Shown: in pieces, positions 18,275 through 35,213 of the stretch
Numbering within the stretch: position 1 is the first letter of the stretch
How the letters are laid out: the number at the start of each line of letters is the position of its first letter
Assembly (NCBI GenBank): GCA_050309605.1
Contig: JBNRMN010000052.1
Location: 3,794-67,793, forward strand
DNA: 64,000 bases
Reading direction: 5' to 3'
Source of the DNA: Anaerohalosphaeraceae bacterium
Lineage (GTDB): Bacteria > Planctomycetota > Phycisphaerae > Sedimentisphaerales > Anaerohalosphaeraceae
Notes under the pieces: generated by a model
What the model saw: only the letters and a program-made list of their open reading frames with translations
Database searches by the model: none
Told to the model about the DNA's origin: nothing
Made by a program: the position numbers and the translations under genes

Positions 18275-18296
18275 ATCTCAATTCTCCGCTGTGCGG

Positions 18297-19328
18297 CTAC
18301 GTTGCCCAATTCAATATGACCTTACACGCTTTACCGGACAACATCGCCGAAAATCCCTTTTCATAATCCCGATAGTCAAAACGGTGCGTAATCAGCGGCG
18401 CGATATCCAGCCCGCACTGAATCAGCATCGTCGTGTTATACCATGTTTCGTACATCAGCCGTCCGTAAATCCCCTTCAGTGTCAGTCCATTGAAAATCAC
18501 CAGATTCCAGTCCACCTGCGTCGGAGGCAAAAGACCCAGCAGTGCAACCTGTCCCCCATGCGCCATCGAGGTCAGCATATCTGTCAGAGCCGACGGACTG
18601 CCGGACATCTCCATCCCGACGTCAAAACCCTCTTTCATTCCCAATTCCCGCTGCACCGCATCCAGCGATTCGCTGCGCGGGTCAATGGTTTTCGTCGCAC
18701 CCATCTTTCGAGCCAGCGCCAGCCGATCCGGATTGATATCGGTCACCACGATAAATCGGGCGCCGACTTGCCGGGCCACGGCCGTGGCCATACATCCAAT
18801 CGGCCCGGCCCCGGTAATCAGTACATCCTCGCCGACGACACGGTAGGTCAGGGCCGTATGCACTGCATTGCCAAGCGGATCAAAACAGCTCAGCACCTCC
18901 AAATCAATCGACGTATCGCAATACCAGACATTGGTCACCGGTACAGAGATATATTCGGCAAACGCCCCGTCGCGATTAACGCCGATCCCCTGCGGCGAAT
19001 GACACAAATGCCTTCGCCCGGCCAGACAATTCCGACAGCGGCCGCACACGACGTGACCTTCGGCACTAACGATGTCTCCTGTCTTGAAATCGTGCACGTT
19101 ACTGCCCATCTCCACGATACGCCCGACAAACTCATGTCCGATTACCATCGGCGTACGAATGGTCTGCTGTGCCCATTGATCCCACGTGTAAATGTGGACA
19201 TCTGTCCCGCAAATCGAGGTTTTCAGGACCTGAATCAAGACATCATTGATGCCGATTTTTGGAATCGGGACTTCTTCGAGCCACAACCCCTCTTTTGCTT
19301 CTTTTTTGACCAATGCCTTCATAGTCAC
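18297..19328 (-). CDS. tdh: L-threonine 3-dehydrogenase
   Basis: Zn-ADH signatures ICGTDVHIY and GHEFVG are present. The 343-aa length and its position directly upstream of kbl match the classic tdh-kbl pair. Confidence 0.9.
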
Positions 19329-19412: not shown

Positions 19413-20132
19413 TCACTTAAATTCGAGCGTTCCAAAACCATCGGGCCGATGAAAATCCGGCGACGCCGTCGAAATCGGCGACCAGCTCAGCCAATGCGGC
19501 CGCGAACTCTCATCGGCGCACTTGTATAAATTACCGCGCCAGACCGCCCCTGCTTGCGGCTGTTCGACGGTCGCATAACGCCGAAGCAAGGCAAACGGCA
19601 GCGCGTATTCCATAACCCAGACCACGGGGGTTTCAATCTCGGACGCAATCGGCCGCTCGGCAAGAGACGCGGCACGCTTGATTTGCCTGCAATCGTCGTT
19701 CTCCAGAAAACGGATGTCCCGATGCGGCGCCGTCTGGTATCGCATTAACAGGGTCCCGATGCAATTGACTTCAAGATTAAAATACGCCTCGGACGGCTCG
19801 GCCTGCGGCGTAAAGAAAAACTCCACACAGCTATCCTTCCAGACCGGCCCGTGCGTGTCCGTCGCAACCGCCCGAACCCATTGATCCTCCACCCGAAAGA
19901 TCACATACAGGGCATTCTCGTCATAACGCATTTTGGCCTGCGTCACGGGACGATGCGAACCGGTTGTCGGCTGGGCACAGGCAATCTCCAGCGGCGCGGT
20001 CCTCTGCCAGACAGGCTTTTCAAAATCCGCATCGACTGCAATCGGCTGCGGTGCGGGCAAGACGCGATAGGCCCTGGCCGCCGTCGGCGAAGCCTTGTCG
20101 CCCGTTTGAATTGAAAGTCTGCCTTGTGTCAT
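19413..20132 (-). CDS. Carbohydrate-binding family 9-like (CBM9_2/DOMON-like) protein, no obvious signal peptide
   Basis: The pattern DADFEKPVWQ...YDENALYVIFRVED...DSCVEFFFTP...FNLEVNCIGT is typical of CBM9-like domains. This is a family-level call only. Confidence 0.5.
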   Translation of the reverse strand: MTQGRLSIQTGDKASPTAARAYRVLPAPQPIAVDADFEKPVWQRTAPLEIACAQPTTGSHRPVTQAKMRYDENALYVIFRVEDQWVRAVATDTHGPVWKDSCVEFFFTPQAEPSEAYFNLEVNCIGTLLMRYQTAPHRDIRFLENDDCRQIKRAASLAERPIASEIETPVVWVMEYALPFALLRRYATVEQPQAGAVWRGNLYKCADESSRPHWLSWSPISTASPDFHRPDGFGTLEFK

Positions 20133-20202: not shown

Positions 20203-22491
20203 TTATGCGCTGCCGCCTTCTTCGGTCAGGGTTTCAATGCCGATCCTGCCCAGCGTCTTAAACAGCAAGATTGTCGCCGCCAGAGCCGCACCGGACAGAA
20301 CAAATCCCCACGCCAGATTGCCGTAAATAAAATTGCCCACCGCAAACAGAGACGCATAAATCACCACGCACCCCAGGAACACGCACAAGATCTGATACGG
20401 CATCTTCCAGTCGCCCACCGCGTCGGTCCGGTCAATCTCCACGCCTTCGGCGCGGGCGTCCATAACCACTTTTCGCCAGCCCGGACCGCCGGGATGACAC
20501 AGCCGGTAAAAATTACGCAGCGTCTGTTGATCCGCCGGCCGAGTCAAAAACGTCGCTGTCAGCCACACCACCGTAACAATGCCAACGCACACCAGAAGCT
20601 GTACCGAGAATTTCAGATGATTCAGCGCGGGGTGAAAGATATAAATCGCAGTGCCTTTGACAACACCGTCAAAGGTCATCGCAATCTCGTCCACAGTGGC
20701 CGCCTCCACCAAGCCGAGCCGCGCACGGCGTTTGTTTTCGCGCTCAAACTCACACTGTCTCTGGTATTCACAAAACGTCTCAAAGTCTTCCTGCCACGGC
20801 CTGCCCTCTATCGCCTCAACCAGAACCGGCACAGACGCCGCCGTTCTCAACTGCTCAAGCTCCTGCAGTTTGGCGTCATATCGGGCACGGGCCGCATCCC
20901 GCGCATCGGACCCCTGGTCCCTGGCCTTGCGCCACGCTGCAACGAGCGTCTCAAGTTCGGCATCGACCTGATCAATGTGACGTTGATATTGGCGTTGTTC
21001 TGCAACTACCGTATTGACCGTTTCGACGTCTTGAATGGAAAAGACCTGATCCCGCACGACGGGACTGTCAACATACCATTTGATCGTGCCTTTATCGCCG
21101 ACGCCCAGCACAATCCAAAAGGCCACGATTGTCGCAGCCACCATCGCGATGATTTCCGTCCAGGCGTTAATCCGCCACCAGAACCACCGCAGCAAATAGA
21201 TCGCCCCGGTTCCCGCACCGGACAACAGCAAGATCTCAAACGCCTGATTGGCGTCCTCCAGAAACGTCAGGGCGAAAAAACCGGCAATCAGCATCAGCAT
21301 CACCGTACAGATCCGACCGGCCAACACCAATTCTTTTTCAGAGGCATTGGGTTTCATAAACCGTTTGTACCAGTCGTTGACGACATAAGAAGACCCCCAG
21401 TTCAGATGCGTTCCGATGGTGGACATATAGGCCGCAATCAGCGAGGCCACCACCAATCCGAGCAGGCCCGGCCCCATCTTGGAAATCATCACCGGATAGG
21501 CGATATCATGCCGCAGATAGGTCGGATCGATGCCGGGAAACTCCGATTTGATGCTTTCCAGCGACGGATACACCACAATCGAGGCCAGCGCCACGATAAT
21601 CCACGGCCACGGACGCATTGCATAATGCATAAAATTAAAAAACAGCGTTGCCCCGATGGCGTTTTTTTCATCTTTGGCCGAGAGCATCCGCTGGGCGATA
21701 TATCCCCCGCCACCGGGTTCAGCACCCGGATACCACACGCTCCACCACTGAACCGCCACGGGAATCAGCAGCAGCGGCACCCACGCCAGCCAGTTCGAAA
21801 AGTCCGGCATCCAGCTTAATTTCCCGACCACCTCCGGGTGAGCCAGCAAAGCGTTTAGTCCGCCGACTTCCGGCTGATTGCACGCGACCACCGCCGCATA
21901 GACCGCCCCGAACATCGCCACCGAGTACTGGAAAAAGTCCGCCCAGATACAGCTTTTGATGCCCCCGGCCGTGGCGTAAATCACAACCCCGGCCGAGCCG
22001 AGCACCACCGCCACCCACGGCTTGACGTCAAAAATCACCTGCCCGATTTTGATCGCCGCCAACGTGACTGTGCCCATAATCAAACAGTTGAAAAAAATCC
22101 CCAGATACAGCGACCGAAACCCGCGGATAAAGGCCGCACTTTTGCCGCTGTAGCGCAGCTCATAAAACTCCAGATCCGTCATCACCCGCGACCGCCGCCA
22201 TAGCTGGGCATAGATAAACACCGTCACCATACCGGTAATTAAAAACGCCCACCATCCCCAGTTGGCCACCACGCCGCCGCCGCGCACCATTCCCGTGACC
22301 AGGTTGGGCGTATCGCAGGAAAACGTGCACGCCACCATCGAGACGCCCAGCAGCCACCACGGCATACTGCGGCCGCCGAGAAAAAACTCCGCCGAACTGC
22401 GCCCCGCCGTTTTGGAAACAATCAAACCGATGGCGACAATCGCCGCAAAGAATACCACAAGAATCAACCAGTCTATCCCTGCCAGTGCCAT
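20203..22491 (-). CDS. Sodium:solute symporter family (SSF) transporter with a ~150-aa internal hydrophilic coiled-coil insert
   Basis: It has many TM helices. The SSF-like N-terminal half includes GGRSMPWW. A charged, helical insert lies at about nt 20640-21100 (QRHIDQVDAELETLVAAWRKARDQGSDARDAARARYDAKLQELEQLR). Confidence 0.8.
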   Translation of the reverse strand: MALAGIDWLILVVFFAAIVAIGLIVSKTAGRSSAEFFLGGRSMPWWLLGVSMVACTFSCDTPNLVTGMVRGGGVVANWGWWAFLITGMVTVFIYAQLWRRSRVMTDLEFYELRYSGKSAAFIRGFRSLYLGIFFNCLIMGTVTLAAIKIGQVIFDVKPWVAVVLGSAGVVIYATAGGIKSCIWADFFQYSVAMFGAVYAAVVACNQPEVGGLNALLAHPEVVGKLSWMPDFSNWLAWVPLLLIPVAVQWWSVWYPGAEPGGGGYIAQRMLSAKDEKNAIGATLFFNFMHYAMRPWPWIIVALASIVVYPSLESIKSEFPGIDPTYLRHDIAYPVMISKMGPGLLGLVVASLIAAYMSTIGTHLNWGSSYVVNDWYKRFMKPNASEKELVLAGRICTVMLMLIAGFFALTFLEDANQAFEILLLSGAGTGAIYLLRWFWWRINAWTEIIAMVAATIVAFWIVLGVGDKGTIKWYVDSPVVRDQVFSIQDVETVNTVVAEQRQYQRHIDQVDAELETLVAAWRKARDQGSDARDAARARYDAKLQELEQLRTAASVPVLVEAIEGRPWQEDFETFCEYQRQCEFERENKRRARLGLVEAATVDEIAMTFDGVVKGTAIYIFHPALNHLKFSVQLLVCVGIVTVVWLTATFLTRPADQQTLRNFYRLCHPGGPGWRKVVMDARAEGVEIDRTDAVGDWKMPYQILCVFLGCVVIYASLFAVGNFIYGNLAWGFVLSGAALAATILLFKTLGRIGIETLTEEGGSA

Positions 22492-22512
22492 ACAGCCTTC
22501 CTTTTCTAATGA

Positions 22513-23439
22513 TTACGATTTATTCTGCCTGCCGCGAAAAAATTCAATGGTCTCGGCAAGCCCTCGTTCAAAATCCGTCTGCAGAGTAAATCCGGCATCG
22601 GTTATTTTGTCGATGCTCGCCAGTGAATGTTTGACATCGCCGGCGCGAACCGGAGCGTACTGAATCTCGGACGACGAGCCGGTCAGGTCGATAATGTGTC
22701 GGGCGATCTCGTTAATCGTCTGCCGCCTCCCGCACGCCACATTATACACACCGCTCAAAGAGTCGTGCTCGGCCAGAAACACATTGGCCCCCACGATATC
22801 CTTGACGAAAATAAAATCCCGCGTCTGGGCGCCGTCGCCGAAAATCGTTATCGGCTCGTTGCGCAGCGCCTTATGAATAAAAATCGGAATCGCCGCGGCA
22901 TACGGACTGTTCGGATCCTGCCGCGGTCCGAACACATTAAAATACCGCATACAGGCCGTCGGCAGCCAGCCTTCCTGAGCATATATACTGCAATAATATT
23001 CACCGTCCAGCTTGGTCACCGCATACGGACTTTTCGGTTCGGGGATCATCGTCTCGACCTTGGGCACCGCGGGATTGTCGCCATAGATTGCCGCCGAACT
23101 GCTGAAACAGAGTTTTTTAACACCGGCCCAGGCCGCTTCCTGCAGCACAATCGTCGTGCCCTGCGTATTGATGGTGATGCACTCTTCGGGATGATCCATC
23201 GATTCGGGCACACTGATCATCGCCGCCAGATGAAACACATAATCCACATCCTGCATCGCGGCCTTGACATCCCTGCGTGAGGCCACCGATCCGTCGATGA
23301 ATTCGCAGTCAATACCGTCCAGATTCTCACGCCGGCCCGTACGCAGATTGTCCAGCACACGAACCTGTGCCTTGTCGGCATAATACGCCGCGATATGACT
23401 GCCGATAAAACCGGCCCCGCCTGTTACAAGGACGCGCAT
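22513..23439 (-). CDS. NAD-dependent sugar-nucleotide 4-epimerase (UDP-Glc/UDP-GlcNAc 4-epimerase-like SDR)
   Basis: Seen: MRVLVTGGAGFIGSH (Rossmann fold), the catalytic SPYAVTK (YxxxK), and a WbpP/TviC-like length. I placed the start at M16 of the track ORF. Confidence 0.85.
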   Translation of the reverse strand: MRVLVTGGAGFIGSHIAAYYADKAQVRVLDNLRTGRRENLDGIDCEFIDGSVASRRDVKAAMQDVDYVFHLAAMISVPESMDHPEECITINTQGTTIVLQEAAWAGVKKLCFSSSAAIYGDNPAVPKVETMIPEPKSPYAVTKLDGEYYCSIYAQEGWLPTACMRYFNVFGPRQDPNSPYAAAIPIFIHKALRNEPITIFGDGAQTRDFIFVKDIVGANVFLAEHDSLSGVYNVACGRRQTINEIARHIIDLTGSSSEIQYAPVRAGDVKHSLASIDKITDAGFTLQTDFERGLAETIEFFRGRQNKS

Positions 23440-24578
23440 TGTCCGGTTCTCCCAGAGACGGCCGACCGGGCGGCGTCTCGCCAAATGGTTTCCGTAATTC
23501 GATGCATCCGATCCTCCTGCTCAATCATCGATTGCACCAGCTTCATTTGTGTTCGGGCGCGATCCAGATTATGCTCGGGTCGGGCGATCTTGTAATACAC
23601 ATCGCCGGCCAGATAGTCGCCCAGAAAGCGAATCATCTGCTCAAACGTGATCAATTTGCCCGCAAAGGCCAGATACTGCTTCTCGATCGGCGTAAAAAAC
23701 GTCTCCGCCTCGACCGCAAATCCCCGCGCAATCGGTTCAAACAGCGAGATATCCATCCACACGTTCGACAAATCCCGCTCATCCTCAGCGGCCGGACACG
23801 TCGCCGTGCGAACCATATCGCCCACATCATACAGCGACAGCCCCGGCATCACCGTATCCAGGTCAATCACACACACACCCTTGTCAGTCGTCCGATCAAA
23901 CAGCACATTGTTGATTTTGGTATCGTTGTGTGTCACGCGAACGGGAATCTTGCCTTGATTCTGAAGCTCCACCAGCACGCCGCATATCTCGGCATGGTTC
24001 TGAACAAAGGCGATTTCCTCTTTGACCTGAGCGGCTCGGTTGCAGGGGTCTTTGTCCAGCACCTTACCGAACGCTTCAAGCCGCTTGGGCGTATGATGAA
24101 AATCCGGTATCGTCTCATGCAGCGGACCGCCCGGCAGATCGCTGAGCATCTTCTGAAACGCACCAAACATCCGCGCCGCCTCATACGCCTGAGCGGGACT
24201 GCTCAGCACATCATAGGACACCGTTGACTCGATCCGATTGTACATACGCCAGTAATTGCCCTCCGGACACCGATAGCAGCCCGCCTGATCCCGCGTGCGG
24301 ATAACGCGAAGCTGCCGAGCCCCCAGCGCCGGATTGTATTGGACGGTTTGACGGCGGATATGCTCGGTAACACGGAGCACATTGTCCATCAGGGCAAACG
24401 GATACCGAAACACCTTATGGTTGATCCGCTGCAAAATGTAACGAACCGTCGATCCGTCGCAGTCGGCCTGAACCGAATAGGTATCATTGATATGACCGCC
24501 GCCGAACGGTTCTATTCGCTCAACCCGTCCGGCAATCTCAAACTGTTCGACAATTGTTTTCAGGTGGTTGTTCATCAC
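23424..24578 (-). CDS. N-acetylhexosamine 1-kinase-like anomeric sugar kinase (NahK/LnpB family, APH fold)
   Basis: These motifs match what I recall of Bifidobacterium NahK: IEPFGGGHINDTYSV, YILQRINHKVF, IPVRVTHNDTKINNVLFD, VIDLDTVMPG and PEHNLDRARTQMKLVQSM. Confidence 0.75.
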   Translation of the reverse strand: MMNNHLKTIVEQFEIAGRVERIEPFGGGHINDTYSVQADCDGSTVRYILQRINHKVFRYPFALMDNVLRVTEHIRRQTVQYNPALGARQLRVIRTRDQAGCYRCPEGNYWRMYNRIESTVSYDVLSSPAQAYEAARMFGAFQKMLSDLPGGPLHETIPDFHHTPKRLEAFGKVLDKDPCNRAAQVKEEIAFVQNHAEICGVLVELQNQGKIPVRVTHNDTKINNVLFDRTTDKGVCVIDLDTVMPGLSLYDVGDMVRTATCPAAEDERDLSNVWMDISLFEPIARGFAVEAETFFTPIEKQYLAFAGKLITFEQMIRFLGDYLAGDVYYKIARPEHNLDRARTQMKLVQSMIEQEDRMHRITETIWRDAARSAVSGRTGQCASL

Positions 24579-24592
24579 AAAGCCTTTGCTGT

Positions 24593-26560
24593 CTATTCGT
24601 CTTTCGTAATGCTGATGATGCCGTTGGAATCCGATCCGCCGTCGCTGCGAACCACCGCACGCAGCCGATACGCCGCCTGCGGATCAAAATCCTTTTGGGG
24701 AACGACAAGCTTGTATGTATTGCGATAATTCGAGCCGCCGGTGCGCCCCTCATGAACATCCGTCGCAACCAAAACGTCGCCGCTGAGAAGCTGTACCTCG
24801 CGAATATCCAGGCGATGAGCGCCGTGCGTATAGGAAAAGTGAACCGTATAGGTTCCCGGCTCTTGAAGATGGCCGCCCACATCCCAGGTCATCGGTTGAT
24901 AGGTCTCATCGGTCTGCCCCGACGACCAGCGGCCGATTTCAATCCGCGGCGGATCCAGCGGACGATAATGCATCTTCACGTAGGAAAGTCGCTGGGTATG
25001 CCGGGTCATCCGATTGTAAAAATCGGAATAATCCTTTCTTTCCATCGGCGTCCAGGCAATTTCCGACAGTGCACACCCCCGCGGAAACGCCATATAAGCG
25101 GCATGTTCCGGCGTGGAAATGTATTCCGTCCAGATTTGAGCCTGCACCCCCAGGATATGCTTTTTCTGGGTGTCTGTCAGCACGCTCGGAACCGGATCAT
25201 ACGAATAGACTCTTTCCAGCGGTATAAATCCGCCGATGGCCAGCGGCTCTGTTTGGGGATCGGCCTGATAATAATCAAAATAAAGGTGCGTATTGGACGC
25301 CATCACCACATCATGGCCGGCCCGTGCGGCCTGGATGCCTCCGCTTTCGCCGCGCCAGCTCATCACCGTCGCGTTCGGCGCCAGCCCCCCTTCCAGAATC
25401 TCATCCCAGCCGATCAGACGCCGTCCATGGGCGTTCAGGAATCTCTCGATTCGCTGAACAAAATAGCTTTGCAGCTCGTGTTCATCGGCCAGCCCTTCCT
25501 GTTCGATTCGCGCCTGACAGTGGGGACAGGCTTCCCATCGCACCTTAGGGCACTCGTCCCCGCCGATATGAATATACTCACCGGGGAACAGTTCCATCGT
25601 TTCGGTCAGAACATCTTTGAGAAACTCAAACACCTTGTCGTTGCCGGCACAATAAACATCCCGCATAATACCCCATCGGGTTTGCACTTCAAACGGTCCG
25701 CCCGTGCAGGACAATTCAGGATAGGCCGCAAGCACCGCCATACAATGTCCGGGCATCTCGATTTCAGGCACAATGGTAATAAACTGCTGCTGAGCATACG
25801 CAACAATCTCGCGGATTTCCTCTTGGGTATAAAACCCGCCGTGCGGCGTCCCGTCGTAGTCTTGGGTATTGCGCCCGAGGACTGTCTCTTTGCGCCAGGA
25901 CGATATCTCTGTCAGTTTCGGATACTTCTTGATCTCGATCCGCCAGCCCTGATCTTCGTTCAGATGCCAGTGGAAGGTATTCATTTTATGCAGCGCCAGC
26001 ACATCAATGAATTTCATCACAAATTCCTTCGGCATAAAATGACGCGACGTATCCAGCATCATTCCGCGCCAGCCGAACCGGGGATAATCTTCAATCTTCA
26101 CGCACGGCACAGTCCACGCCGCGCCCTGGACTTTCGAGGGGCTGAATATCTCTGTCGGCAAGAGCTGCCGCAGCGTCTGTCCGCCGTAAAACAACCCCGC
26201 CGGCGACGGGGCCGTAATCACCACCTGTCGGACGCCTGCATCCAGACGATAGCCTTCCTGACCCAACGCCTCGAGCGACGGATCTATCTTCAGAACGATC
26301 CGATTCGCCTGATCCGACACCCAGCGTCGCACAGGCAGCGCAAACCCTGTGGCCGGGCGCAACTGCGCAGCCAGCCGACGACCGACCGACTCAGAAGCGT
26401 GTTCAACCGCGATAACGGTATCGGAGGTCACCTCGAATTCGCCTGACTGCACCTCCAGTTTTACCGGTTGAGGAATAATCGAAACCGTCGATTGGCCGAT
26501 TGCCGCGCTGGCGACTATTGTCATCGTCATAAGAGATACGAATCTTCGCAAACCATTCAT
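24593..26560 (-). CDS. Beta-N-acetylhexosaminidase (GH20) with an extra C-terminal beta-sandwich-like domain
   Basis: Seen: DTSRHF, FHWHLNEDQGWR and the catalytic pair YIHIGGDE. A signal peptide follows M26. I moved the start to 26560 to avoid overlap with the upstream gene. Confidence 0.9.
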   Translation of the reverse strand: MNGLRRFVSLMTMTIVASAAIGQSTVSIIPQPVKLEVQSGEFEVTSDTVIAVEHASESVGRRLAAQLRPATGFALPVRRWVSDQANRIVLKIDPSLEALGQEGYRLDAGVRQVVITAPSPAGLFYGGQTLRQLLPTEIFSPSKVQGAAWTVPCVKIEDYPRFGWRGMMLDTSRHFMPKEFVMKFIDVLALHKMNTFHWHLNEDQGWRIEIKKYPKLTEISSWRKETVLGRNTQDYDGTPHGGFYTQEEIREIVAYAQQQFITIVPEIEMPGHCMAVLAAYPELSCTGGPFEVQTRWGIMRDVYCAGNDKVFEFLKDVLTETMELFPGEYIHIGGDECPKVRWEACPHCQARIEQEGLADEHELQSYFVQRIERFLNAHGRRLIGWDEILEGGLAPNATVMSWRGESGGIQAARAGHDVVMASNTHLYFDYYQADPQTEPLAIGGFIPLERVYSYDPVPSVLTDTQKKHILGVQAQIWTEYISTPEHAAYMAFPRGCALSEIAWTPMERKDYSDFYNRMTRHTQRLSYVKMHYRPLDPPRIEIGRWSSGQTDETYQPMTWDVGGHLQEPGTYTVHFSYTHGAHRLDIREVQLLSGDVLVATDVHEGRTGGSNYRNTYKLVVPQKDFDPQAAYRLRAVVRSDGGSDSNGIISITKDE

Positions 26561-26579
26561 AGGCACTGTCCTTTCCAAT

Positions 26580-27512
26580 TTATCTTGACTGACTATCTCT
26601 CGCATACAGATATTCGGGATAAACGCCCTGCTCAATCAATTGACGTACCTTCTCCTGAGCGATCGCCTGATCCTCGCGATACGTGATGCCGAACCAATTC
26701 TCGTTTGTGCTTAGAATTTGAACCTTTCTGAGACCTTTATGAATTAAGGCATCAACCGCTGTTGGAATGCCGAATTCACTTGTTGGGTTATCGCCCTCTG
26801 TTTTCAGGTAGCCGTCAAACTGCATCTGTAGAAAATCAAAAACATCCGACCCCAGCCCCCACAAATTCATCGACACATATTCCTCCCCCGACAGCCGATG
26901 CGACGCGCCCGAAGCGTCCTGATAAACGGCGCCTGTGCCGTCTTTTCGAATGCCGGTGCATTCCTGAATCGAAGTCAGCCTCATCTGCGCGTCGTACCGG
27001 CACAGGCCGCGGGATACCGCCCCGTATTCCGACAGCGTATTGCGCAGAAGATACCCCACCATCGCATAATCAGCGGCCTTGCCGGCGGCCATGTTGTCCA
27101 GATGCGACGCCATCACGCGATACGCCTGGACGCCGTAATAATCGTCGGCGTTAATCACGGCAAACGGCTCATTAATCACGTCTTTGGCCACCAGAATCGC
27201 ATGCCCCGTTCCCCAGGGCTTTTCGCGATGGGCCGGCAGCGAATAGCCGTTCAGACACGCATCCAATTCCTGATAGGCATACGCCGTTTCCACCTGATTT
27301 GCAAATTTATGGCCGATCTTCTCTCGAAAGGCGTCTTCAAAATAATGGCGAATCACAAAGACGATCTTGTCAAAACCCGCTCGAAGCGCATCATAAATGG
27401 AATAGTCAATAATGATTTCACCGTTCGGGCCGACGGGGGCGATCTGTTTCAGCCCCCCGTAGCGGCTTCCCAATCCGGCGGCGATAATAAGCAGTGTTTT
27501 TTTCTTCACCAA
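26580..27512 (-). CDS. Sugar-1-phosphate nucleotidyltransferase (NTP_transferase fold)
   Basis: The N-terminal LLIIAAGLGSRYGGLKQ is a G-loop. KPWGTGHA and NADDYYG are also present. It sits in the same operon as the anomeric kinase, two genes upstream with the GH20 gene between them. Confidence 0.75.
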   Translation of the reverse strand: MVKKKTLLIIAAGLGSRYGGLKQIAPVGPNGEIIIDYSIYDALRAGFDKIVFVIRHYFEDAFREKIGHKFANQVETAYAYQELDACLNGYSLPAHREKPWGTGHAILVAKDVINEPFAVINADDYYGVQAYRVMASHLDNMAAGKAADYAMVGYLLRNTLSEYGAVSRGLCRYDAQMRLTSIQECTGIRKDGTGAVYQDASGASHRLSGEEYVSMNLWGLGSDVFDFLQMQFDGYLKTEGDNPTSEFGIPTAVDALIHKGLRKVQILSTNENWFGITYREDQAIAQEKVRQLIEQGVYPEYLYARDSQSR

Positions 27513-27523
27513 AAGACAACCCC

Positions 27524-29893
27524 TTAATCAAATGCCTCAATGGACTTGCGCAGCGTTCGACACGACTGGTAAAACTCGTCCGGCTCCATTTCTTTGAGGA
27601 AGACGAACCCCCGCGTTGCGCGAATCAGCGGGCTTTTGTGATTGTAAAACCATTCCCGCCCCAGACAGGTCTTGAGCACCTGATACTGCTGAACCTGAAT
27701 CCGCTGAGCCAGTTCCGAAAACGGCCCGTCGTGCTCATAACTGGGAAACGACGCTTCTTTCTGGCTGAGAAACGCATTCTCAAACGACTGATGCATCACC
27801 GAAAACATATTCAGGCTCACCGGCACAAACACATTCGCCTCTGACGGCTCAAACCGATACCACACATTGCGATATCCCCACACCCGAATATCATCACGTT
27901 TGGTCTTCTGTTGATAGACCTGCATCGCCTCGGAGACGGCCTGAAGCACTTTATAGTGCGTATCCGGCCCGCTGGCTTCCGGGTCCAGCGCCACGGTGAC
28001 CACGTCCGGATGAATACGCTCCAATTGTTCAACAATCGGCAGAATGTCGCGTTTGCGCGTCGGCTGCGGCGTGAACACATCCCCGGTATAAAACCCAAGC
28101 CGCAGATGCATCACATTATCGCAGTTCCAGCCGTAATAGCCCCACAGACACTCCACTTCCCACTCACGGCACATGCCTTTGAGCTGCTGAATCGCCGGCG
28201 GGTCCTGCTTGCCGGGGTACTGCGTTCGAAAATAATCCAGCAGGTCGTCAATAATCTTTTCAATCTTATCGCTTTTTTTCTGCCCGTACACCGCGTACAA
28301 ATTCCGCAAAAAGCGGCGCGCGCAGCCTTCGTCCTTCATCTCGGCGTTTCCGGCCGCCACCCCGTCCAGATACTGCCAGACATCACGATTCCGTGCCATC
28401 CGGTTGTCCGGTTCAAAATATCCCTCACGCCGCAACGCCGCAAACGAATGCGAATGATAAAACCGCCAAAGCGTGGATACCTGCCATTCCATAAACCGGT
28501 TGGTCACCGACGTAAAGCCGCTGGTCAGCGTCATAAAATGATGGCGGTTGCTCGCCTTTCGAAAATGACGCACCAAATGACCGAAATACCCCAGCATAAT
28601 ATCATCATGATGTGGTTCGGTATGCAGAAAACAGGTGTTCTCCAATACCTCAATGCCTTTTTTGATCTTCTGCTCAAGACGCTCCTGCACCTGTCGGGCC
28701 AATTGCGCGGGGGGGTGTTTTTCTTTGCGCACTGTTTCCGCGGCAAATCGATGCTGCTCAAAATCGCCGGCCGACAGACGCGAGAGCCTCTTTCTTTTCT
28801 GAACCGACAGATCAATGACATATTTTTCGATATCCGCATCACTGAGCTTTCGCTGTTTGCGCAGCCGATGATACTGCCGTTCTTCAAGTCCTTTGGCCGC
28901 CCCCTCGGTCAGATAGAACCGAGCACCCGGCAACACCTGAAGCGAAGTCGCCGGATAGCGAACGTCCTTGCCCGATTGGATCGCATGGGCCACCACATCG
29001 GCTTTCGCCTCGCCGGCGGCCATAATAATCGCGGTGCAGTCCGGGTTGCGGGTAATGGTTCGCAGGCCAATGGTAATCACATGCGACCGCCGTGCGATTT
29101 CAATCCCGCCCAGATCGCCCGCCGCGGCGGCCTGCGTCTCATAATTGGTCGGACACAGCCGTGTCGTGGAATGATGATCCGAACCGCTGATATTAAACCC
29201 GATATGACCGTCCGGCCCGATGCCGCCCAGAAAGAAGCCGATACCGCCCAATTCGGCGATGCGATCCTCATAATCCATACACCACTGGTCAATGCGCTCC
29301 AGCACATCCTTCTGCTCGCACTCCAGATTGGTCTTGGGCTGACGATAACGCAGCGTCAAATCCACCCGCTTGTCCGGCCAGACGCGCTCCAGTGTCTGCC
29401 CAGACGACAGACCGATCTTGCACGGATCGATCAGCATCGCCTTTTTCGGTTCCAGACCGAAGTTTTTGAGATAATACGTCTTGACGTAATAACAAAAGCT
29501 GTTGGCCTGGGCTGAATTGATTGGATAAAACTCATCAATCTGGACAAAATGAAGGCTTTTCATATCCGGCTTGACGGCCGGATCAATGCCCCATTCAATG
29601 AGCATCTTTTCGGTTTCGGGCTTGTGCCAGGTTTTCAGCAGATGCCGAACCCACTTGATGAAATACTCCGGCGTCTTGCCTGTCGGCAGTGAAATCAACC
29701 CGCCGGGATGCTGCTGAACCCATTCCAGAAAACGCAGCGCCGCCAATTGGCCCAGGACGGGAAAACTGTTCACCACCAAAGACGGTATCTTCTCTGTCGG
29801 CGGATAGATCATGTCATAAGCCGAACAGGCCAGCGCCTTTTTTTCGACGTGCGACAGTCGAACCGATGTTGTTACTCTTTTTTTTGCATCCAT
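27524..29893 (-). CDS. Glucosamine-6-phosphate deaminase (NagB-like) fused to a LmbE/PIG-L-like deacetylase domain and a long C-terminal region
   Basis: The NagB/6-phosphogluconolactonase fold is indicated by ISLPTGKTPEYF and GGIGPDGHIGFN. The LmbE-like motif is LHTEPHHDDIMLGY. The protein is 789 aa long. Confidence 0.75.
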   Translation of the reverse strand: MDAKKRVTTSVRLSHVEKKALACSAYDMIYPPTEKIPSLVVNSFPVLGQLAALRFLEWVQQHPGGLISLPTGKTPEYFIKWVRHLLKTWHKPETEKMLIEWGIDPAVKPDMKSLHFVQIDEFYPINSAQANSFCYYVKTYYLKNFGLEPKKAMLIDPCKIGLSSGQTLERVWPDKRVDLTLRYRQPKTNLECEQKDVLERIDQWCMDYEDRIAELGGIGFFLGGIGPDGHIGFNISGSDHHSTTRLCPTNYETQAAAAGDLGGIEIARRSHVITIGLRTITRNPDCTAIIMAAGEAKADVVAHAIQSGKDVRYPATSLQVLPGARFYLTEGAAKGLEERQYHRLRKQRKLSDADIEKYVIDLSVQKRKRLSRLSAGDFEQHRFAAETVRKEKHPPAQLARQVQERLEQKIKKGIEVLENTCFLHTEPHHDDIMLGYFGHLVRHFRKASNRHHFMTLTSGFTSVTNRFMEWQVSTLWRFYHSHSFAALRREGYFEPDNRMARNRDVWQYLDGVAAGNAEMKDEGCARRFLRNLYAVYGQKKSDKIEKIIDDLLDYFRTQYPGKQDPPAIQQLKGMCREWEVECLWGYYGWNCDNVMHLRLGFYTGDVFTPQPTRKRDILPIVEQLERIHPDVVTVALDPEASGPDTHYKVLQAVSEAMQVYQQKTKRDDIRVWGYRNVWYRFEPSEANVFVPVSLNMFSVMHQSFENAFLSQKEASFPSYEHDGPFSELAQRIQVQQYQVLKTCLGREWFYNHKSPLIRATRGFVFLKEMEPDEFYQSCRTLRKSIEAFD

Positions 29894-29927
29894 ACGTTCA
29901 CAAACAAGTAAGAAAATGTAATAAAAG

Positions 29928-31292
29928 TCAATACAACGTATCCACCCCCAACGGACGGGCTGTTTTCCACGCGCCGCGCGTAAAATCGGGGAATTTGACC
30001 GGTTCGCCGTTGCGCGCGACGGATTTTTCGCTCAGCGGAATGACCGCATTCCACACGACCGAGTCATACACATTGATGTCCGGCTGAAGCCCTTTGCGCA
30101 GGGCCTGAATCAAACGATAATCCTCAATGAAATCCATTCCGCCGTGACCGGCCCCGGCGGCATCTTCTTTCAGCTTCGTCCAGACGGGGTGTTCAAACTC
30201 GTCAAAATACGCCTCCAGCTTGTCCCACTGATGAGAACGGCTTCGACCTTCGATATGCACCAACTGCTCCGGATATTTGCGCGCCAGCCCTCGGGTGCCC
30301 TGCACCAGAAAGTCCCGACTGTAAGGCCGCGGCAGATTGGTGTCATGCTTGCAGATGATGGTCTTGCCGTTTTTCGTGCGAATCAGACACGTATTGACAT
30401 CCCCCAGCGCAAATTTCTGATGAACCCATTCGCTGTCCGGATAATGCTCACGGGCATACGCATTCAGCCCGCGCCCTTTGCTGCTGAATGAGACCATATA
30501 ATCCAGCGCATCGCCGTGATGAATCCCCATACACCACGCCATCGGGCCGATGCCGTGCTGCGGATACAGATTGCCGTTGCGTTTGATAGAATACTGCAAA
30601 CGCCACATATTGTAATAGTACGTCGGCGACAGTTTCAGCGCCCGCAGATCATGCAGATAGCCGCACTCGCCGTGAATCATCTCACCGAACAGGCCCTTTT
30701 GAATCATATTCAAAAGCACCATCTCCGTGTAATCATAACAGCAGTTCTCCATCATCATACAGTGGCGGCGATGTTTCTCCGACGTCTCGACCAGCTCCCA
30801 GCAATCGTCCAGCGACATCGCCAGATTCAGCTCCGTGGCCGCATGCTTGCCGTTTCGCATCGCTGTCAGTGCAATCGGTGCGTGCCATTCCCACGGCGCG
30901 GCGCTATAGACCAGATCCAGCTCTTCCTGCTCGCACATCCGCTGGAAATCCCGCGGCCCGTCGGTATAGGCCGTCGGTTCCGGATGTCCCGCATCCATCA
31001 GGACTTGTTTGGCCCACGCCGTCCGTTCGGGACGCACGTCACAGACCGCGGCCACCTGACACCCTTCAATTCGCGAAAGATTACGAATATGCCCGCTGCC
31101 CATATTGCCAATCCCGACAAAGCCGACCTTGATCACATCCTTGGGGGGCGTCGGATAATTCAGCATCACAGCCGGTTCGGCCTTGTGAACCGACTGGGCA
31201 CAGCCGGAAAGCGTGGCACCGGCAACAACGGCGCCGAAGCCGGCCGCAGCGCTTGTTTTGAACAAATCTCTTCGGTTAATCGAATTTTTCAC
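29928..31292 (-). CDS. GH109-like NAD-dependent alpha-N-acetylgalactosaminidase (Gfo/Idh/MocA fold) with a TAT signal
   Basis: The twin-arginine signal is INRRDLFKTSAAAGFGAVVAGATLSGC. The Rossmann motif is VGFVGIGNMGSGH. A GH109-like core is present (GKHAATELNLA, HCMMMENCCYDY, GECGYLHDLR). A GTG start at 31292, preceded by AGGAACAGGAG, is more plausible than the track ATG at 31361. Confidence 0.7.
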   Translation of the reverse strand: MKNSINRRDLFKTSAAAGFGAVVAGATLSGCAQSVHKAEPAVMLNYPTPPKDVIKVGFVGIGNMGSGHIRNLSRIEGCQVAAVCDVRPERTAWAKQVLMDAGHPEPTAYTDGPRDFQRMCEQEELDLVYSAAPWEWHAPIALTAMRNGKHAATELNLAMSLDDCWELVETSEKHRRHCMMMENCCYDYTEMVLLNMIQKGLFGEMIHGECGYLHDLRALKLSPTYYYNMWRLQYSIKRNGNLYPQHGIGPMAWCMGIHHGDALDYMVSFSSKGRGLNAYAREHYPDSEWVHQKFALGDVNTCLIRTKNGKTIICKHDTNLPRPYSRDFLVQGTRGLARKYPEQLVHIEGRSRSHQWDKLEAYFDEFEHPVWTKLKEDAAGAGHGGMDFIEDYRLIQALRKGLQPDINVYDSVVWNAVIPLSEKSVARNGEPVKFPDFTRGAWKTARPLGVDTLY

Positions 31293-31454
31293 GTTCGCAC
31301 TCCTGTTCCTGAAGGGTTGGCGTTCACTGTATTTGAACCGATATTGTCCGCAGCGATCCAAGTGACATCAATTATAAGCGGATTATTTCTTGAACCCAAT
31401 AGACCAACGTAATATAATGATGGAAAATCGTAACATAAATTGAGGGTTCATACC

Positions 31455-32342
31455 ATGACAACCGGCGAAAAACAAAAGATAAAACGTCAATATACGTCCG
31501 GAAAGCCTGGAAATGTCATTGATGCGGATTACTTCTACTTTGATACAGCCCCGCGGGAGCACAACGATCTGGCCATTGTCTGCGGCGGATACGAAAAATG
31601 CGCCCCGGACTTTGACATCAATCGCAGCAACTATCCCTACTACTTTATCAAATATACCGTCAACGGCAAAGGAACGCTGCACATCGATTCACGGTCCCAC
31701 GCGCTGCGGCCGGGAATCCTGACCGGATTCGCCCCGGGCACCCCACACCATTACAAAGCCGACACGGCCAATCCGATGGAACATATTTTCATTACCTTTT
31801 TGGGGGATGACTGCGCCGACTTGTTCGCAAAAAGCACGCTGGCAGAAAAACACTGCATTCTGTCGGACAACCCCGATGAAACACTGAATCTGCTCAACAA
31901 AATCCTGCTGTTGGGCCATGAAAAAATCGATTATGCACAAGAGATCTGCTGTGCGTATCTGCGCATCCTGCTGTTGGAACAGCCCGCCTATGTGACGCAA
32001 AGTAAAGCCAATTATCCGATTTCCAAAGGCACTTACCTGGACTGCAAACGATACATCGACACCCATTTCTCAACCATTAAATCACCCAGTGAAGTCGCCG
32101 AAAAGTGCGGCATCGACGTCCGCTATTTATCGGTCCTGTTCAAGCGTTACTGCCACATTTCCCCCAGTCAGTACCTCCAGCGGCTCAAACTCAATAAAGC
32201 CGCCAATTTATTGCTGACCACCGATCTGGCCATTAAAGAAGTCGCTTATCGGGTTGGATTTGAGGATCCCTATCATTTCTCGAAAAATTTCAAAGATCTT
32301 CACGGACAAGCGCCCAATCATTATCGAAAAAATCACATGTGA
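31455..32342 (+). CDS. AraC-family transcriptional regulator (cupin sensor plus HTH), divergent from the glycan operon
   Basis: The C-terminal AraC HTH is VRYLSVLFKRYCHISPSQYLQRLKLNKAANLL...VAYRVGFEDPYHFSKNFK. The ATG at 31455 has GAGG 8 nt upstream. Confidence 0.85.
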   Translation: MTTGEKQKIKRQYTSGKPGNVIDADYFYFDTAPREHNDLAIVCGGYEKCAPDFDINRSNYPYYFIKYTVNGKGTLHIDSRSHALRPGILTGFAPGTPHHYKADTANPMEHIFITFLGDDCADLFAKSTLAEKHCILSDNPDETLNLLNKILLLGHEKIDYAQEICCAYLRILLLEQPAYVTQSKANYPISKGTYLDCKRYIDTHFSTIKSPSEVAEKCGIDVRYLSVLFKRYCHISPSQYLQRLKLNKAANLLLTTDLAIKEVAYRVGFEDPYHFSKNFKDLHGQAPNHYRKNHM

Positions 32343-32432
32343 TTCCATCCGAGACGCCCGCCTCCCAAGTCCGCATTGATGGATGTGCTGTCTTGACTGT
32401 TTTCGAGTATCGAGGGTTCTGCATCCGCTCGC

Positions 32433-35213
32433 TCAATCTTCCATCCACGTCGGACCGATAGCGATGTCCACCTTAAGAGGCACCCGCAGCGGCATCGCGC
32501 CGGTCATTTCGTCTTTAATCCACGCCGCATGCCGTTCGGCCTGGGCCTTCGGCAGTTCAAAAACCAGCTCGTCGTGAATTTGCAGAATCATTTTGACCTC
32601 CGGCTGTGTTTTTTCAATCCGGCGATGAATGTTGACCATCGCCACTTTGATTAAATCGGCGGCGGAACCTTGAATGACCGTATTGACCGCCAGTCGCTCA
32701 GCCTGCGACCGTACATTATGATTGCGGCTGTTCAGCCCGCTAATGGGACGCCGACGCCCCAAAATCGTCTCGGCATATCCTTGTTTTTGGGCCTTGGCAA
32801 TGACTTGGTCCATAAATGCCCGAATCGATTTATAACGCGCAAAATAGTCATTGATAAATTGCCGGGCTTCCTGCTGACTGATGCCGACACTCCGCGCCAA
32901 ACCGAACGGCCCCTGCCCGTAAATGATGCCGAAATTGACCCCTTTGGATTTACTTCGCATCTGTGGCGTAACCTCCTCAATCGGCACACCGTAGATTTGC
33001 GAAGCGACAAAACTGTGAATATCGCGATCTTCGGCAAACGCCTTGAGCAAGGCCGCATCCCCGGAAAAATGCGCCAGCAGCCGAAGCTCAATCTGCGAAT
33101 AATCGGCGCTGAGAATGCAGCCGTCCTCATCTGCGGGCACAAACGCCGCACGAATTCGGCGCCCCAGCTCGGTACGCACCGGAATATTCTGAAGATTCGG
33201 ATCCGACGAGCTGAGCCGACCGGTTGCCGTTACCGTTTGGTTGAAGGAGGCATGCACACGACCGGTCCGCGGGTTGATCAATTGCCCCAGCTTGTCAATA
33301 TAAGTATTCTTGAGTTTGACAAGTTGACGGTATTGCAGAATCAGCGGGACAATCTCATGCCGACCGGCCAACTGCTCCAGCACACCAACGTCAGTGCTGC
33401 GTTGAGTCTTGCCGGACTTGATGCTTTCCAGGCCGAGCCGATCAAACAAAATTTCGCCAAGCTGCCTGGGAGAATCTATGTTAAACGACACCCCCGCCAA
33501 CTGAAATATTGTGTCGGTCAGTTCACCGATTGTATCGGAAATATCGTTGCTCATGCGCCGCAGCAGCGCCGTATCCAGCGACACACCATTGGCCTCCATA
33601 CGGGCCAGCACCTCCACCAGCGGCATCTCAACCGTTTCGAATAATTTTTTCAAGGCCGGCTGGGCATCGAGCCGCCGTGAAAGATACGCATAAAGCTGCC
33701 ATGTCACATCGGCATCCTCGGCGGCATAATCGCACGCGGCCTGCGTATCTATCTGATCAAACGTGCGCTGGTTCTTTCCTTTGCCAATGAGCGACGTGAT
33801 GGCAATCGGCTCATACCCCAGGTAATCCCGACTCATTGCATCCATCGAATGACTGCCGCGATCCGGCGACAGACAATACGAGGCCACCATCGTATCAAAC
33901 ACGCCGCCCTCCGAGACGGCGACCGGCATACCGGCATTTTCCAGCACAAGCCAGTCGTACTTAAGGTTCTGGGCGACTTTATACCGCGTCGCATCCGCCA
34001 AAATCGGCCCTATAGCCGTCTTGACATCCTCCAGTTCAAGGCGATTTTGCCCCAGCGGTGCTCGAACTGGCAGATACCACCCCGTGTGTGCCTGCCACGA
34101 AAAACTCAACCCCGCCAGATCGGCCCGCATTGCATCAATGTGTGTCGTTTCGGTGTCAAAGGCGAACTGTTTCTGCGTTTTCAGTGCGTTGACAAAAGCA
34201 TCCAGTTTCTCCGGTGTATCGACCAGATGATACACCTTGTTGGCCGGTCGCACCGACGGCGGCTCACGATCATCTTCAAAAAGGCTGCCCTGTCCTTTTC
34301 GCGCGACGGGCGGCTGGCCGGCATTCGACGGCGAGGCGTTCGAGCCATCGGCCTTTAGCCCCATCTGCGACAGCAGCCGGGTAAACCCCAGCTCCGAAAA
34401 CACCGCCGCCAGTCGTTCCTTGTCCGCCTCGGATACCCGGAACAGCGACTGGTCAAACGCGACCGGCGCATCGCAATGGAGAGTCACCAGCTCGCGGCTT
34501 AACTCAATCTTATCTTTATTGGCGCGCAGATTGTCGCCCCGCTTACCCTTGATTTCATCGGCGTGGGCCAACAGCGCATCCAGCGACCCGTATTTTTTGA
34601 TCCAGTCCATCGCCGTCTTCGGCCCGACATCCGGCACGCCCGGCACGTTGTCGGCGGTATCGCCCTGCAGCGCCAGTACATCCACAAACTGCTCAGGCCG
34701 AAGCCCCGTCTCGGCCAGCAGCGCTTCGGGATCGGTCTTTTTACCGGTCTTGATGTCGTAGGCAAACACCGACGGCCCCAAAACCTGAAGCATATCCTTG
34801 TCTTTGGAACAGATATACACCTCCACGCCCCGTTTGACAGCGGCCGCGGCCAGCGTCCCCATCACATCATCGGCCTCATAACCGTCCACCCGCAGCATGG
34901 GAATCCGCAGCGCTTCAAGAATCTGCTCAATACGGGCAATCTGCCCCGGCATATCTTCCGGCATCGGCGGACGATGAGCCTTGTACTCCGGATAAATCGA
35001 CGTGCGGAAACCGGGCGTCTTGGAGTCCATCGCCACGACCAGCATATCCGGCTTTTCCCGCTCCAGCAGGCCCAGCAGCGCCGTGGTAAACACATACACC
35101 GCTTTGGTCGGTTCGCCGTTGGGCGCATTAAGCGGACGCATCGGAGCATAATAGGCCGAATAAATATGGGCATGCCCGTCGATGATAAACAAACGCGGCG
35201 TTTTCTTCGTCAT
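32433..35213 (-). CDS. polA: DNA polymerase I
   Basis: The 926-aa product has a 5'-3' exonuclease N-terminus (LFIIDGHAHIYSAYYA), a 3'-5' exonuclease domain, and Pol A motifs (DYSQIELRLLAH, RSKSKGVNFGIIYG, QIHDELVFE). Confidence 0.95.
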   Translation of the reverse strand: MTKKTPRLFIIDGHAHIYSAYYAPMRPLNAPNGEPTKAVYVFTTALLGLLEREKPDMLVVAMDSKTPGFRTSIYPEYKAHRPPMPEDMPGQIARIEQILEALRIPMLRVDGYEADDVMGTLAAAAVKRGVEVYICSKDKDMLQVLGPSVFAYDIKTGKKTDPEALLAETGLRPEQFVDVLALQGDTADNVPGVPDVGPKTAMDWIKKYGSLDALLAHADEIKGKRGDNLRANKDKIELSRELVTLHCDAPVAFDQSLFRVSEADKERLAAVFSELGFTRLLSQMGLKADGSNASPSNAGQPPVARKGQGSLFEDDREPPSVRPANKVYHLVDTPEKLDAFVNALKTQKQFAFDTETTHIDAMRADLAGLSFSWQAHTGWYLPVRAPLGQNRLELEDVKTAIGPILADATRYKVAQNLKYDWLVLENAGMPVAVSEGGVFDTMVASYCLSPDRGSHSMDAMSRDYLGYEPIAITSLIGKGKNQRTFDQIDTQAACDYAAEDADVTWQLYAYLSRRLDAQPALKKLFETVEMPLVEVLARMEANGVSLDTALLRRMSNDISDTIGELTDTIFQLAGVSFNIDSPRQLGEILFDRLGLESIKSGKTQRSTDVGVLEQLAGRHEIVPLILQYRQLVKLKNTYIDKLGQLINPRTGRVHASFNQTVTATGRLSSSDPNLQNIPVRTELGRRIRAAFVPADEDGCILSADYSQIELRLLAHFSGDAALLKAFAEDRDIHSFVASQIYGVPIEEVTPQMRSKSKGVNFGIIYGQGPFGLARSVGISQQEARQFINDYFARYKSIRAFMDQVIAKAQKQGYAETILGRRRPISGLNSRNHNVRSQAERLAVNTVIQGSAADLIKVAMVNIHRRIEKTQPEVKMILQIHDELVFELPKAQAERHAAWIKDEMTGAMPLRVPLKVDIAIGPTWMED

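Follow-up and report, generated by a model that had tools for sequence, protein, structure and literature searches.

How might a bacterium use N-acetylgalactosamine (GalNAc) and N-acetylglucosamine (GlcNAc) released from glycans when no nagA and no galT can be recognized in its genome? The question is raised by an operon in a 64-kb stretch of DNA (here called the window; contig JBNRMN010000052.1) from a Phycisphaerae-type member of the Planctomycetota, available as a metagenome-assembled genome (MAG) of 3.4 Mb that is 99.7% complete. The operon consists of eight co-directional genes on the minus strand, from 19.4 to 31.3 kb, located behind a divergent gene of the AraC family. They encode two exported glycosidases of the glycoside hydrolase families GH109 and GH20, a protein uniting NagB and LmbE folds, a sugar-1-phosphate nucleotidyltransferase (NTase), a NahK-type N-acetylhexosamine 1-kinase, a nucleotide-sugar 4-epimerase of the SDR family, an SSF symporter and a CBM9-like protein. 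The reading favored here, with reasonable though not high confidence, is that of an operon under AraC control by which N-acetylhexosamines (HexNAc), above all GalNAc, are harvested from glycans and used.

In the proposed pathway, the exported GH109 and GH20 enzymes would release alpha-GalNAc and beta-linked GlcNAc or GalNAc outside the cytoplasm, and the SSF symporter would import the free sugars. The NahK-type kinase would phosphorylate HexNAc at O1. The NTase would then convert HexNAc-1-P and UTP to UDP-HexNAc and pyrophosphate (PPi), which is the job of GalT in bifidobacteria, and the epimerase would turn UDP-GalNAc into UDP-GlcNAc. Judged by homology and conserved gene linkage, the steps assigned to the kinase, NTase and epimerase are rather likely, and the predicted order of kinase, pyrophosphorylase and epimerase is well supported by genomics. 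The UDP-GlcNAc formed may enter envelope synthesis directly.

The kinase, the nucleotidyltransferase and the epimerase

The kinase gene (23424-24578, minus strand, as are all operon genes) codes for a protein with an APH fold, recognized by Pfam APH. Residues 4-365 of its 384 align by phmmer with the NahK chains of Bifidobacterium longum and B. infantis in the PDB (4ocu, 4wh1, and 4ocj; E 3e-81 to 4e-79). The HNDTKxNN catalytic loop and the Mg-binding IDLDT motif are kept, identical or conservatively replaced in comparison with NahK. The NahK-like identity proposed in an earlier sequence-only reading of this DNA is thus upheld by the full-length alignment and the intact catalytic loop. Signal peptides are absent from the N-termini of the kinase, the NTase, and the epimerase. 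The kinase appears to be a full-length, cytoplasmic homologue of NahK, and phosphorylation of GalNAc and GlcNAc at O1 is predicted.

The NTase (26580-27512, 310 aa) belongs to a large and poorly described family. It matches PF00483 NTP_transferase at 38.1 bits, above the cut-off of 21.2, and aligns end to end with PDB entry 3pnn (E 5e-91). This entry, which we take to be a Porphyromonas gingivalis protein, is named "conserved domain protein" and comes from structural genomics without an assigned function. When a profile of 21 family members was run against the PDB with E values up to 1, it found 3pnn and then only UTP-glucose-1-phosphate uridylyltransferases of the GalU/YngB type, at about 1e-7; no MurU, GlmU or RmlA chain was matched. 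The likeness to GalU is limited to the N-terminal 125-190 residues, and the score against the galU model TIGR01099 is 28.2 bits, below its cut-off of 326.8. Within the GxGxR...K signature, A11-A12-G13, R17 and K22-Q23 are invariant among the 21 members, and so are K98-P-W-G-T102, N121-A-D-D124 and Gln81. The family has more than 8000 matches in the protein collection, annotated inconsistently as dTDP-glucose or UDP-glucose pyrophosphorylase, and a single copy is present in the genome studied here. We propose that the enzyme is a HexNAc-1-P uridylyltransferase, that is, a UDP-HexNAc pyrophosphorylase. A dedicated NTase would make sense in view of the poor activity of bacterial GlmU on GalNAc-1-P.

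The strongest support for a kinase-NTase partnership comes from the comparison of loci. Relatives of the kinase were collected with one genome per species, giving 80 loci with 10-kb flanks. In 25 of these, an NTase gene is found no more than 10 kb from the NahK homologue, and in 23 the two genes adjoin directly. The adjoining genes follow the order NTase then NahK in 22 cases and the reverse order in one, with alignment gaps from -6 to 317 nt. The linked pairs were found in Pirellulales, Victivallales, Lentisphaeria, Acidobacteriota, Chloroflexota, Hydrogenedentota, Armatimonadota, Aminicenantes, Woeseiaceae and Lachnospiraceae, including Roseburia inulinivorans. The NTase is present and unlinked to NahK in Akkermansia, a Bacteroidota MAG and a Planctomycetia MAG. 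For a single-copy gene, such linkage is far beyond chance. An even draw of 301 Planctomycetota genomes yielded 29 with NahK and 19 with the NTase (presence at 1e-30), 17 of the latter also having NahK; related genomes are not independent, and none of these co-occurrence counts is a statistical test.

Searches for gene families covered the whole genome. No match to the GalT family PF01087 was obtained at E values up to 0.01, with a control that was positive in six reference genomes. Together with the linkage across phyla, this agrees with the earlier suggestion that a pyrophosphorylase-type NTase takes the place of GalT.

The epimerase gene (22513-23439; longest open reading frame to 23484) scores 199 bits against Pfam Epimerase. 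The nearest chains in the PDB are 6dnt, 4zrm, 6wjb/6wj9, 2p5u, WbgU and WbpP, with E values from 4e-68 to 3e-51. The names of these top matches are mixed. 4zrm and 2p5u are called UDP-glucose 4-epimerase, and 6dnt and 6wjb are unnamed epimerases, which presumably act on HexNAc; WbgU and WbpP are UDP-HexNAc 4-epimerases. The protein falls below the curated galE cut-off, and a homologue stands directly downstream of NahK in 8 of the 80 loci. We propose that it interconverts UDP-GalNAc and UDP-GlcNAc. A 4-epimerase step after the kinase and the NTase had already been envisaged from the sequence, and it is in keeping with the presence of WbgU and WbpP among the nearest solved relatives.

Several observations count against a general role of the NTase downstream of NahK. 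No NTase match at 1e-30 was found in 12 of the 29 NahK-positive Planctomycetota genomes. Two Sedimentisphaerales genomes (G325 and G326; loci L043 and L070) have a NahK operon and no NTase of the 3pnn family genome-wide at 1e-20. Their operons read GH109-fusion-GH20-NahK-SSF-CBM9 (L043) and GH20-NahK-SSF-CBM9 (L070), and because the NTase was not found there, the NahK product needs another fate in these genomes. GalT-family matches are present in 3 of the 17 genomes with both NahK and NTase, in 6 of the 12 with NahK and no NTase match, and in 111 of the 301 overall. Finally, literature and PDB searches found no characterized member of the NTase family, with most subscription journals outside the literature coverage. 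The rule that a NahK genome has either the NTase or GalT was also considered and amounts only to a trend: six NahK-positive genomes have neither, and with related genomes not independent, these counts are no statistical test either.

Operon structure and the amino-sugar genes of the genome

The AraC-family gene (31440-32342, plus strand) encodes cupin/AraC_binding and HTH_18 domains and is the probable sugar-responsive regulator of the operon. It is divergent from the GH109 gene also in a genome of the same genus (G002), and an AraC gene lies near the operon in loci L031 and L043. The GH109-type gene (29928-31292) encodes an NAD-dependent alpha-N-acetylgalactosaminidase with the domains Glyco_hydro_109_C (192 bits, E 8.7e-57) and GFO_IDH_MocA. 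Its true start is the GTG at 31292, with an AGGAG-like site upstream. The N-terminus carries the twin-arginine motif NRRDLFK and the lipobox LSGC, a lipoprotein signature of twin-arginine translocation (TAT), and so the TAT-exported enzyme with this same start in the sequence-only reading is recovered. The fusion gene (27524-29893) and the NTase gene follow. The GH20 beta-N-acetylhexosaminidase (24593-26560; longest open reading frame to 26635) matches Pfam Glyco_hydro_20 at 416 bits, and Glyco_hydro_20b, and has an N-terminal signal peptide after the Met at 26560. Beyond the kinase and epimerase genes, the SSF sodium:solute symporter (20203-22491, 762 aa; Pfam SSF and TIGR00813) is a candidate HexNAc importer. 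Homologues with 73-97% identity are located near NahK in loci L025, L031, L043, L070 and L095. The last gene (19413-20132) encodes a CBM9-like protein of 239 aa (Pfam CBM9_2, E 1.9e-40), and such a gene lies 3' of the SSF gene in L025, L031, L043, L070 and G002. More generally, Phycisphaerae-type loci (L025, L031, L043, L070, L106 and L113) consistently pair the SSF or the fusion gene with a CBM9-like protein that is about 240 aa long and has no recognizable signal peptide.

The gaps from GH109 to SSF measure 34, 11, 19 and 14 nt, followed by an overlap of about 16 nt between kinase and epimerase and a gap of 21 nt. The tight packing described before, with gaps of 35 nt or less, is therefore correct, with a measured maximum of 34 nt and one overlapping pair; likewise, all the genes that had been named were found by Pfam and NCBIfam on the minus strand in the order given. 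The gene order, including the divergent AraC gene, is identical in G002, at 76-87% protein identity. In addition, an unrelated soil metagenome run yielded a 13.8-kb contig that spans positions 22338-32400 with 19 differences. Because the same order is seen in G002 and in the independent soil contig, the arrangement is real and not an artefact of assembly. Near-identical DNA is present in metagenomes from poultry litter, soil, animal gut, biogas and sludge.

The one informative site from a promoter and terminator scan is a TTGAAC-17-TATAAT match within the divergent spacer between GH109 and AraC. Promoter-like sites number 25 against 11.6 expected and are scattered, and the sigma-70 consensus may not fit Planctomycetota. 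Terminator-like sites occur at chance level only. The sole run labelled as transcriptomic (X20) is probably DNA and gave only short contigs of low depth. The stretch 32433-36586, immediately upstream of the AraC gene, holds polA (926 aa) and a gene of the DnaA family (438 aa) on the minus strand. A replication origin is not evident in the window, where the cumulative GC skew falls steadily without a turning point.

No classical NagK-NagA-NagB route can be seen in the genome, whose sole recognizable HexNAc kinase is the NahK-type enzyme. There is no nagA match (TIGR00221), with a control that was positive in 13 of 14 reference genomes, and no PIG-L match (PF02585) at 0.01. A ROK protein of the kinase type is likewise absent from the genome, the only ROK protein being a NagC/Mlc-like regulator with a helix-turn-helix domain. 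Matches to BcrAD_BadFG, possible eukaryote-type GlcNAc kinases, look like activases of CoA enzymes. The earlier statement that no classical nagK, nagA or aga genes can be seen holds beyond the window. The genome has no NagB-like gene besides the fusion, the other PF01182 match being a 6-phosphogluconolactonase. GH112 (PF09508) gave no match in the genome, by a search that also matched none of the 14 reference genomes.

For the synthesis of UDP-GlcNAc, the window contains a GlmS gene (42765-44633), and the genome contains an archaeal-type GlmM, a PMM/PGM paralogue and a GlmU-like gene coding for 358 aa. The latter (1489-2565 of L017, G000:C33) has a full uridylyltransferase domain, corresponding to profile positions 2-297 of 452; most of the left-handed helix of the acetyltransferase is missing or lies on a separate piece.

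The NagB-LmbE fusion, the exit into catabolism and competing explanations

The second gene of the operon encodes a protein of 789 aa. It matches the NCBIfam model PRK02122 below the cut-off, and NagB proteins in the PDB are matched down to E 3e-14. An AlphaFold2 model built from a 39-sequence alignment has a predicted local distance difference test score (pLDDT) of 93.9. The N-terminal domain, residues 30-345 approximately, adopts the NagB fold, with Foldseek TMt values of 0.80-0.90 to NagB of Escherichia coli, human, Bacillus subtilis and Borrelia, and it superposes better on glucosamine-6-phosphate (GlcN-6-P) deaminases than on 6-phosphogluconolactonases. The catalytic residues are largely conserved in the 39 members (D120 in 31, E121 in 35, D228 in 33 and H230 in 35), the latter two forming the motif D228-G-H230. 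For the C-terminal domain, modelled separately (residues 400-789, pLDDT 92.7), the top 41 Foldseek matches all belong to the LmbE/PIG-L superfamily and include LnmX, diacetylchitobiose deacetylases, MshB and BshB. This domain carries a helical insertion of about 130 residues. The metal-binding motif of LmbE is kept as H428 (33 of 39), D430 (36), D431 (38) and H646 (35). The label of a NagB-LmbE fusion, first given from the translation, is therefore confirmed in both folds by models, Foldseek and conserved residues. Both halves look catalytically competent in the model, and the protein is probably a deacetylase joined to a deaminase. Its family has more than 6800 matches, with 63-100% identity among the top 120, nearly all of them without a Pfam assignment.

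Some features fit such a function less well. The NagB domain has FNxxGS where the Glu of the FNEP motif is expected, which we take to be Glu148 in E. coli. The protein falls below the cut-offs of both curated deaminase models (68.9 bits against 236.9 for TIGR00502 nagB; 196 against 384 for PRK02122), and PF02585 PIG-L matches at 18 bits (E 0.004), below 28.2. The fusion is not tied to NahK, which is present in 3 of the 12 genomes with a fusion of the 789 type, and a NagA-like match occurs in 8 of the 12. The idea that the kinase route feeds the NagB-LmbE enzyme, which the sequence-only reading had itself offered as an inference, finds no support as a specific coupling from a NahK gene in only 3 of 12 genomes. 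A replacement of NagA by the fusion across the phylum was considered as well and gave no clean pattern, with four of the 12 genomes lacking a NagA-like match.

The substrate of the deacetylase domain may be approached from two sides. In locus L106 (G134:C11, 6626-12141), the fusion gene overlaps by 4 nt with the gene for a 320-aa sugar kinase of the ROK family; a gene resembling ROK-family regulators is transcribed divergently from the fusion gene, and the kinase gene is succeeded by a CBM9-like gene. The locus is a candidate compact module of kinase, deacetylase and deaminase. No NagA match was found in G134 at 1e-20. The ROK-coupled fusion in this genome without a NagA match suggests a general role as GlcNAc-phosphate deacetylase and GlcN-6-P deaminase, and it argues for GlcNAc-6-P as the substrate. 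On the other side, LmbE enzymes typically act on substrates of the alpha-GlcNAc-O-R type, so that GlcNAc-1-P is also a reasonable candidate.

Other NahK neighbors were seen in loci from Opitutaceae, Lentisphaerota and Kiritimatiellia (L040, L042, L060, L072 and others), where the gene after NahK encodes a conserved protein of some 484 aa. This protein has no Pfam or NCBIfam match and contains the ASKHA/ROK-like motifs DLGxS and NDGD. It was considered as a relative of the fusion, and the comparison shows no relationship. A stand-alone PIG-L deacetylase (60 bits) follows the 484-aa protein in five loci (L033, L049, L066, L067 and L099). PIG-L beside NahK is a second link between NahK and LmbE-type deacetylases.

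From the genes seen in the genome, the simplest scheme for an exit into catabolism, and the likeliest one, would start with the reversal of the pyrophosphorylase reaction, giving GlcNAc-1-P within an Isselbacher-type cycle of UTP and PPi. The LmbE domain would next remove the acetyl group, GlmM or the PMM/PGM paralogue would act as the mutase, and the NagB domain would complete the path to fructose-6-P by deamination. This direction of flux and the exit as a whole are tentative and possible rather than probable. Somewhat less likely still is the full extension of the scheme. GalNAc and GlcNAc would be completely catabolized without NagK, NagA or GalT, through the Isselbacher-type cycle, LmbE action on an anomerically substituted GlcNAc phosphate, GlmM and NagB to fructose-6-P, and the same NTase would be the missing step after the kinase BT4240 in gut Bacteroides and in Akkermansia. 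No relevant paper was found on a "Leloir-like" GalNAc route, on an NTase partner of NahK or on the NagB-LmbE fusion, in searches that had most subscription journals outside their coverage.

The explanation that competes best, unlikely as we consider it, is salvage only. The kinase, NTase and epimerase would supply peptidoglycan, lipopolysaccharide or exopolysaccharide, and the fusion would act independently on GlcNAc-6-P or GlcN-6-P supplied by another route, with the shared regulator as the only reason for its place in the operon. The nine fusion genomes without NahK and the coupling to a gene of the ROK 6-kinase type in G134 are in line with this separation. UDP-GlcNAc would be a normal end product in a genome with GlmS, GlmM and GlmU for synthesis de novo, and the AmgK/MurU route is a textbook precedent for pure salvage. 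However, no GlcNAc 6-kinase was found in the genome, given the regulator-like sole ROK protein and the activase-like BcrAD_BadFG matches, and because of this the fusion would be left without a visible supply of substrate. The combination of a high-capacity symporter and a deaminase with two exported glycosidases also resembles a nutrient operon, and a homologous kinase of Bacteroides thetaiotaomicron is needed for growth on GalNAc as carbon source (PMC11992087).

It is improbable, more so than salvage, that the NTase is instead a UDP-hexose pyrophosphorylase acting on Glc-1-P or Gal-1-P, with galactose released by the GH2 enzyme encoded downstream and with HexNAc-1-P handled by a mutase or the LmbE domain. 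The only characterized PDB relatives are indeed UDP-glucose pyrophosphorylases of the GalU type, there are genomes whose NahK operon is accompanied by no NTase match, and a pyrophosphorylase route for galactose would be plausible in a genome without a galT match. Yet the recurrent neighbor of the NTase across phyla is NahK, not galactokinase or GH2; the similarity to GalU is remote, at about 1e-7 over the N-terminal part and 28 against 327 bits; and the accompanying epimerase has HexNAc-type epimerases among its nearest solved relatives. Recycling of MurNAc through MurNAc-1-P to UDP-MurNAc is very improbable: it would share the two-step logic of adjoining genes for an APH-fold anomeric kinase and an NTP-transferase-fold enzyme, and AmgK also accepts GlcNAc (textbook), but the kinase aligns closely with NahK along its full length (E 3e-81), the profile search at E up to 1 matched no MurU chain although MurU structures exist in the PDB, the 310-aa NTase is longer than MurU-type enzymes, and the genes that share the operon encode GH109, GH20 and a 4-epimerase instead of MurNAc-related functions.

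Comparison with known systems

The AmgK/MurU system of Pseudomonas and other bacteria had been invoked for the logic of the replaced GalT step. The likeness stands in its logic, since in both an anomeric APH-fold kinase is found beside an NTP-transferase-fold enzyme that makes, or would make, a UDP-sugar directly. It does not extend to the enzymes. The NTase is of another family, whose profile retrieves GalU-type chains from the PDB but not MurU; the kinase is an orthologue of NahK and not of AmgK; and the context is glycan degradation and 4-epimerization, not wall recycling.

The proposed exit resembles the Isselbacher, or UDP-sugar pyrophosphorylase, route for galactose. Both would involve a sugar-1-phosphate and UTP, 4-epimerization, and pyrophosphorolysis to the epimeric sugar-1-phosphate, with UTP and PPi recycled; in the present case the substrates would be N-acetylhexosamines, and the cycle is a prediction. 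With NagA and NagB, and with PRK02122, the fusion shares a NagB-fold domain, the Asp-Glu and Asp-Gly-His motifs and a fused deacetylase-type domain. In contrast to NagA, this domain has the LmbE/PIG-L fold and not that of an amidohydrolase, and in contrast to PRK02122 the fusion is about 130 residues longer and below the cut-off of the model. If the assignment is true, the fusion would be a possible and very widespread replacement of NagA and NagB, and at least four of the sampled fusion genomes, including the one studied here, are without a NagA match.

The galacto-N-biose/lacto-N-biose (GNB/LNB) pathway of Bifidobacterium comprises the GH112 phosphorylase LnpA, the kinase LnpB (NahK), the GalT-type uridylyltransferase LnpC and the GalE-type LnpD. 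Common to both systems are a NahK-type 1-kinase, nucleotide activation, and a 4-epimerization that would bring GalNAc-1-P into the GlcNAc series. Differences are apparent as well. The genome gave no GalT-family match, and activation is proposed to depend on a pyrophosphorylase-type NTase; the epimerase is more like WbgU, WbpP and 6dnt than like classical GalE; and the monosaccharides would come from exported GH109 and GH20 enzymes, whereas in Bifidobacterium they arise from intracellular phosphorolysis.

Every mucin O-glycan is attached through GalNAc, which also accounts for half of chondroitin. The closest parallel in gene content is the polysaccharide utilization locus BT4240-50 of B. thetaiotaomicron, as a NahK-like kinase, GH109, GH2, an M60-like peptidase and a sugar transporter are present in both. 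Downstream of the operon in the window, between 6730 and 16934, the minus strand codes for a GH2 beta-galactosidase (6730-10686, 1318 aa) and an M60 (enhancin-like) peptidase (10716-13010, 764 aa), each with an F5/8-type-C domain, and for a surface-type protein of 1264 aa with LamG, PA14 and Big_9 domains. The whole 25-kb region may be a utilization island for mucin-type O-glycoproteins. Following the CBM9-like gene, tdh for L-threonine 3-dehydrogenase (543 bits) and kbl for glycine C-acetyltransferase (652 bits) occupy 17087-19328 on the minus strand, and the placement of tdh is kept in G002. Threonine catabolism encoded beside O-glycan genes may point to Thr-rich glycopeptides as a nutrient.

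The kinase BT4240 is NahK-like, makes HexNAc-1-P with an approximately 275-fold preference for GalNAc, and is essential for growth on GalNAc (PMC11992087). Its locus holds GH109, GH2 and the M60-like peptidase, and no enzyme downstream of GalNAc-1-P was named (Ndeh et al. 2025, PMC11992087). The kinase was shown to be the sole entry point of GalNAc in B. thetaiotaomicron, and the fate of GalNAc-1-P was left open in that study (PMC11992087). The present operon differs by adding the NTase, the epimerase and the fusion as candidate downstream steps, by the lack of SusC/SusD-type genes among those annotated here, and by a transporter of the SSF and not the MFS type.

What the window contributes is the operon in its complete setting, a genome in which neither nagA nor galT was matched, and a structural assignment of the fusion. 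The NTase and NahK occur together in more than 10 phylum-level lineages, including Akkermansia (unlinked), Lachnospiraceae and Bacteroidota. If the proposed functions are true, the automatic labels "dTDP-glucose pyrophosphorylase" and "glucosamine-6-phosphate deaminase" would be corrected, and new enzymes for the production of UDP-GalNAc would become available. With respect to B. thetaiotaomicron, the operon and the conserved NTase-NahK pair name candidates for the steps that follow GalNAc-1-P.

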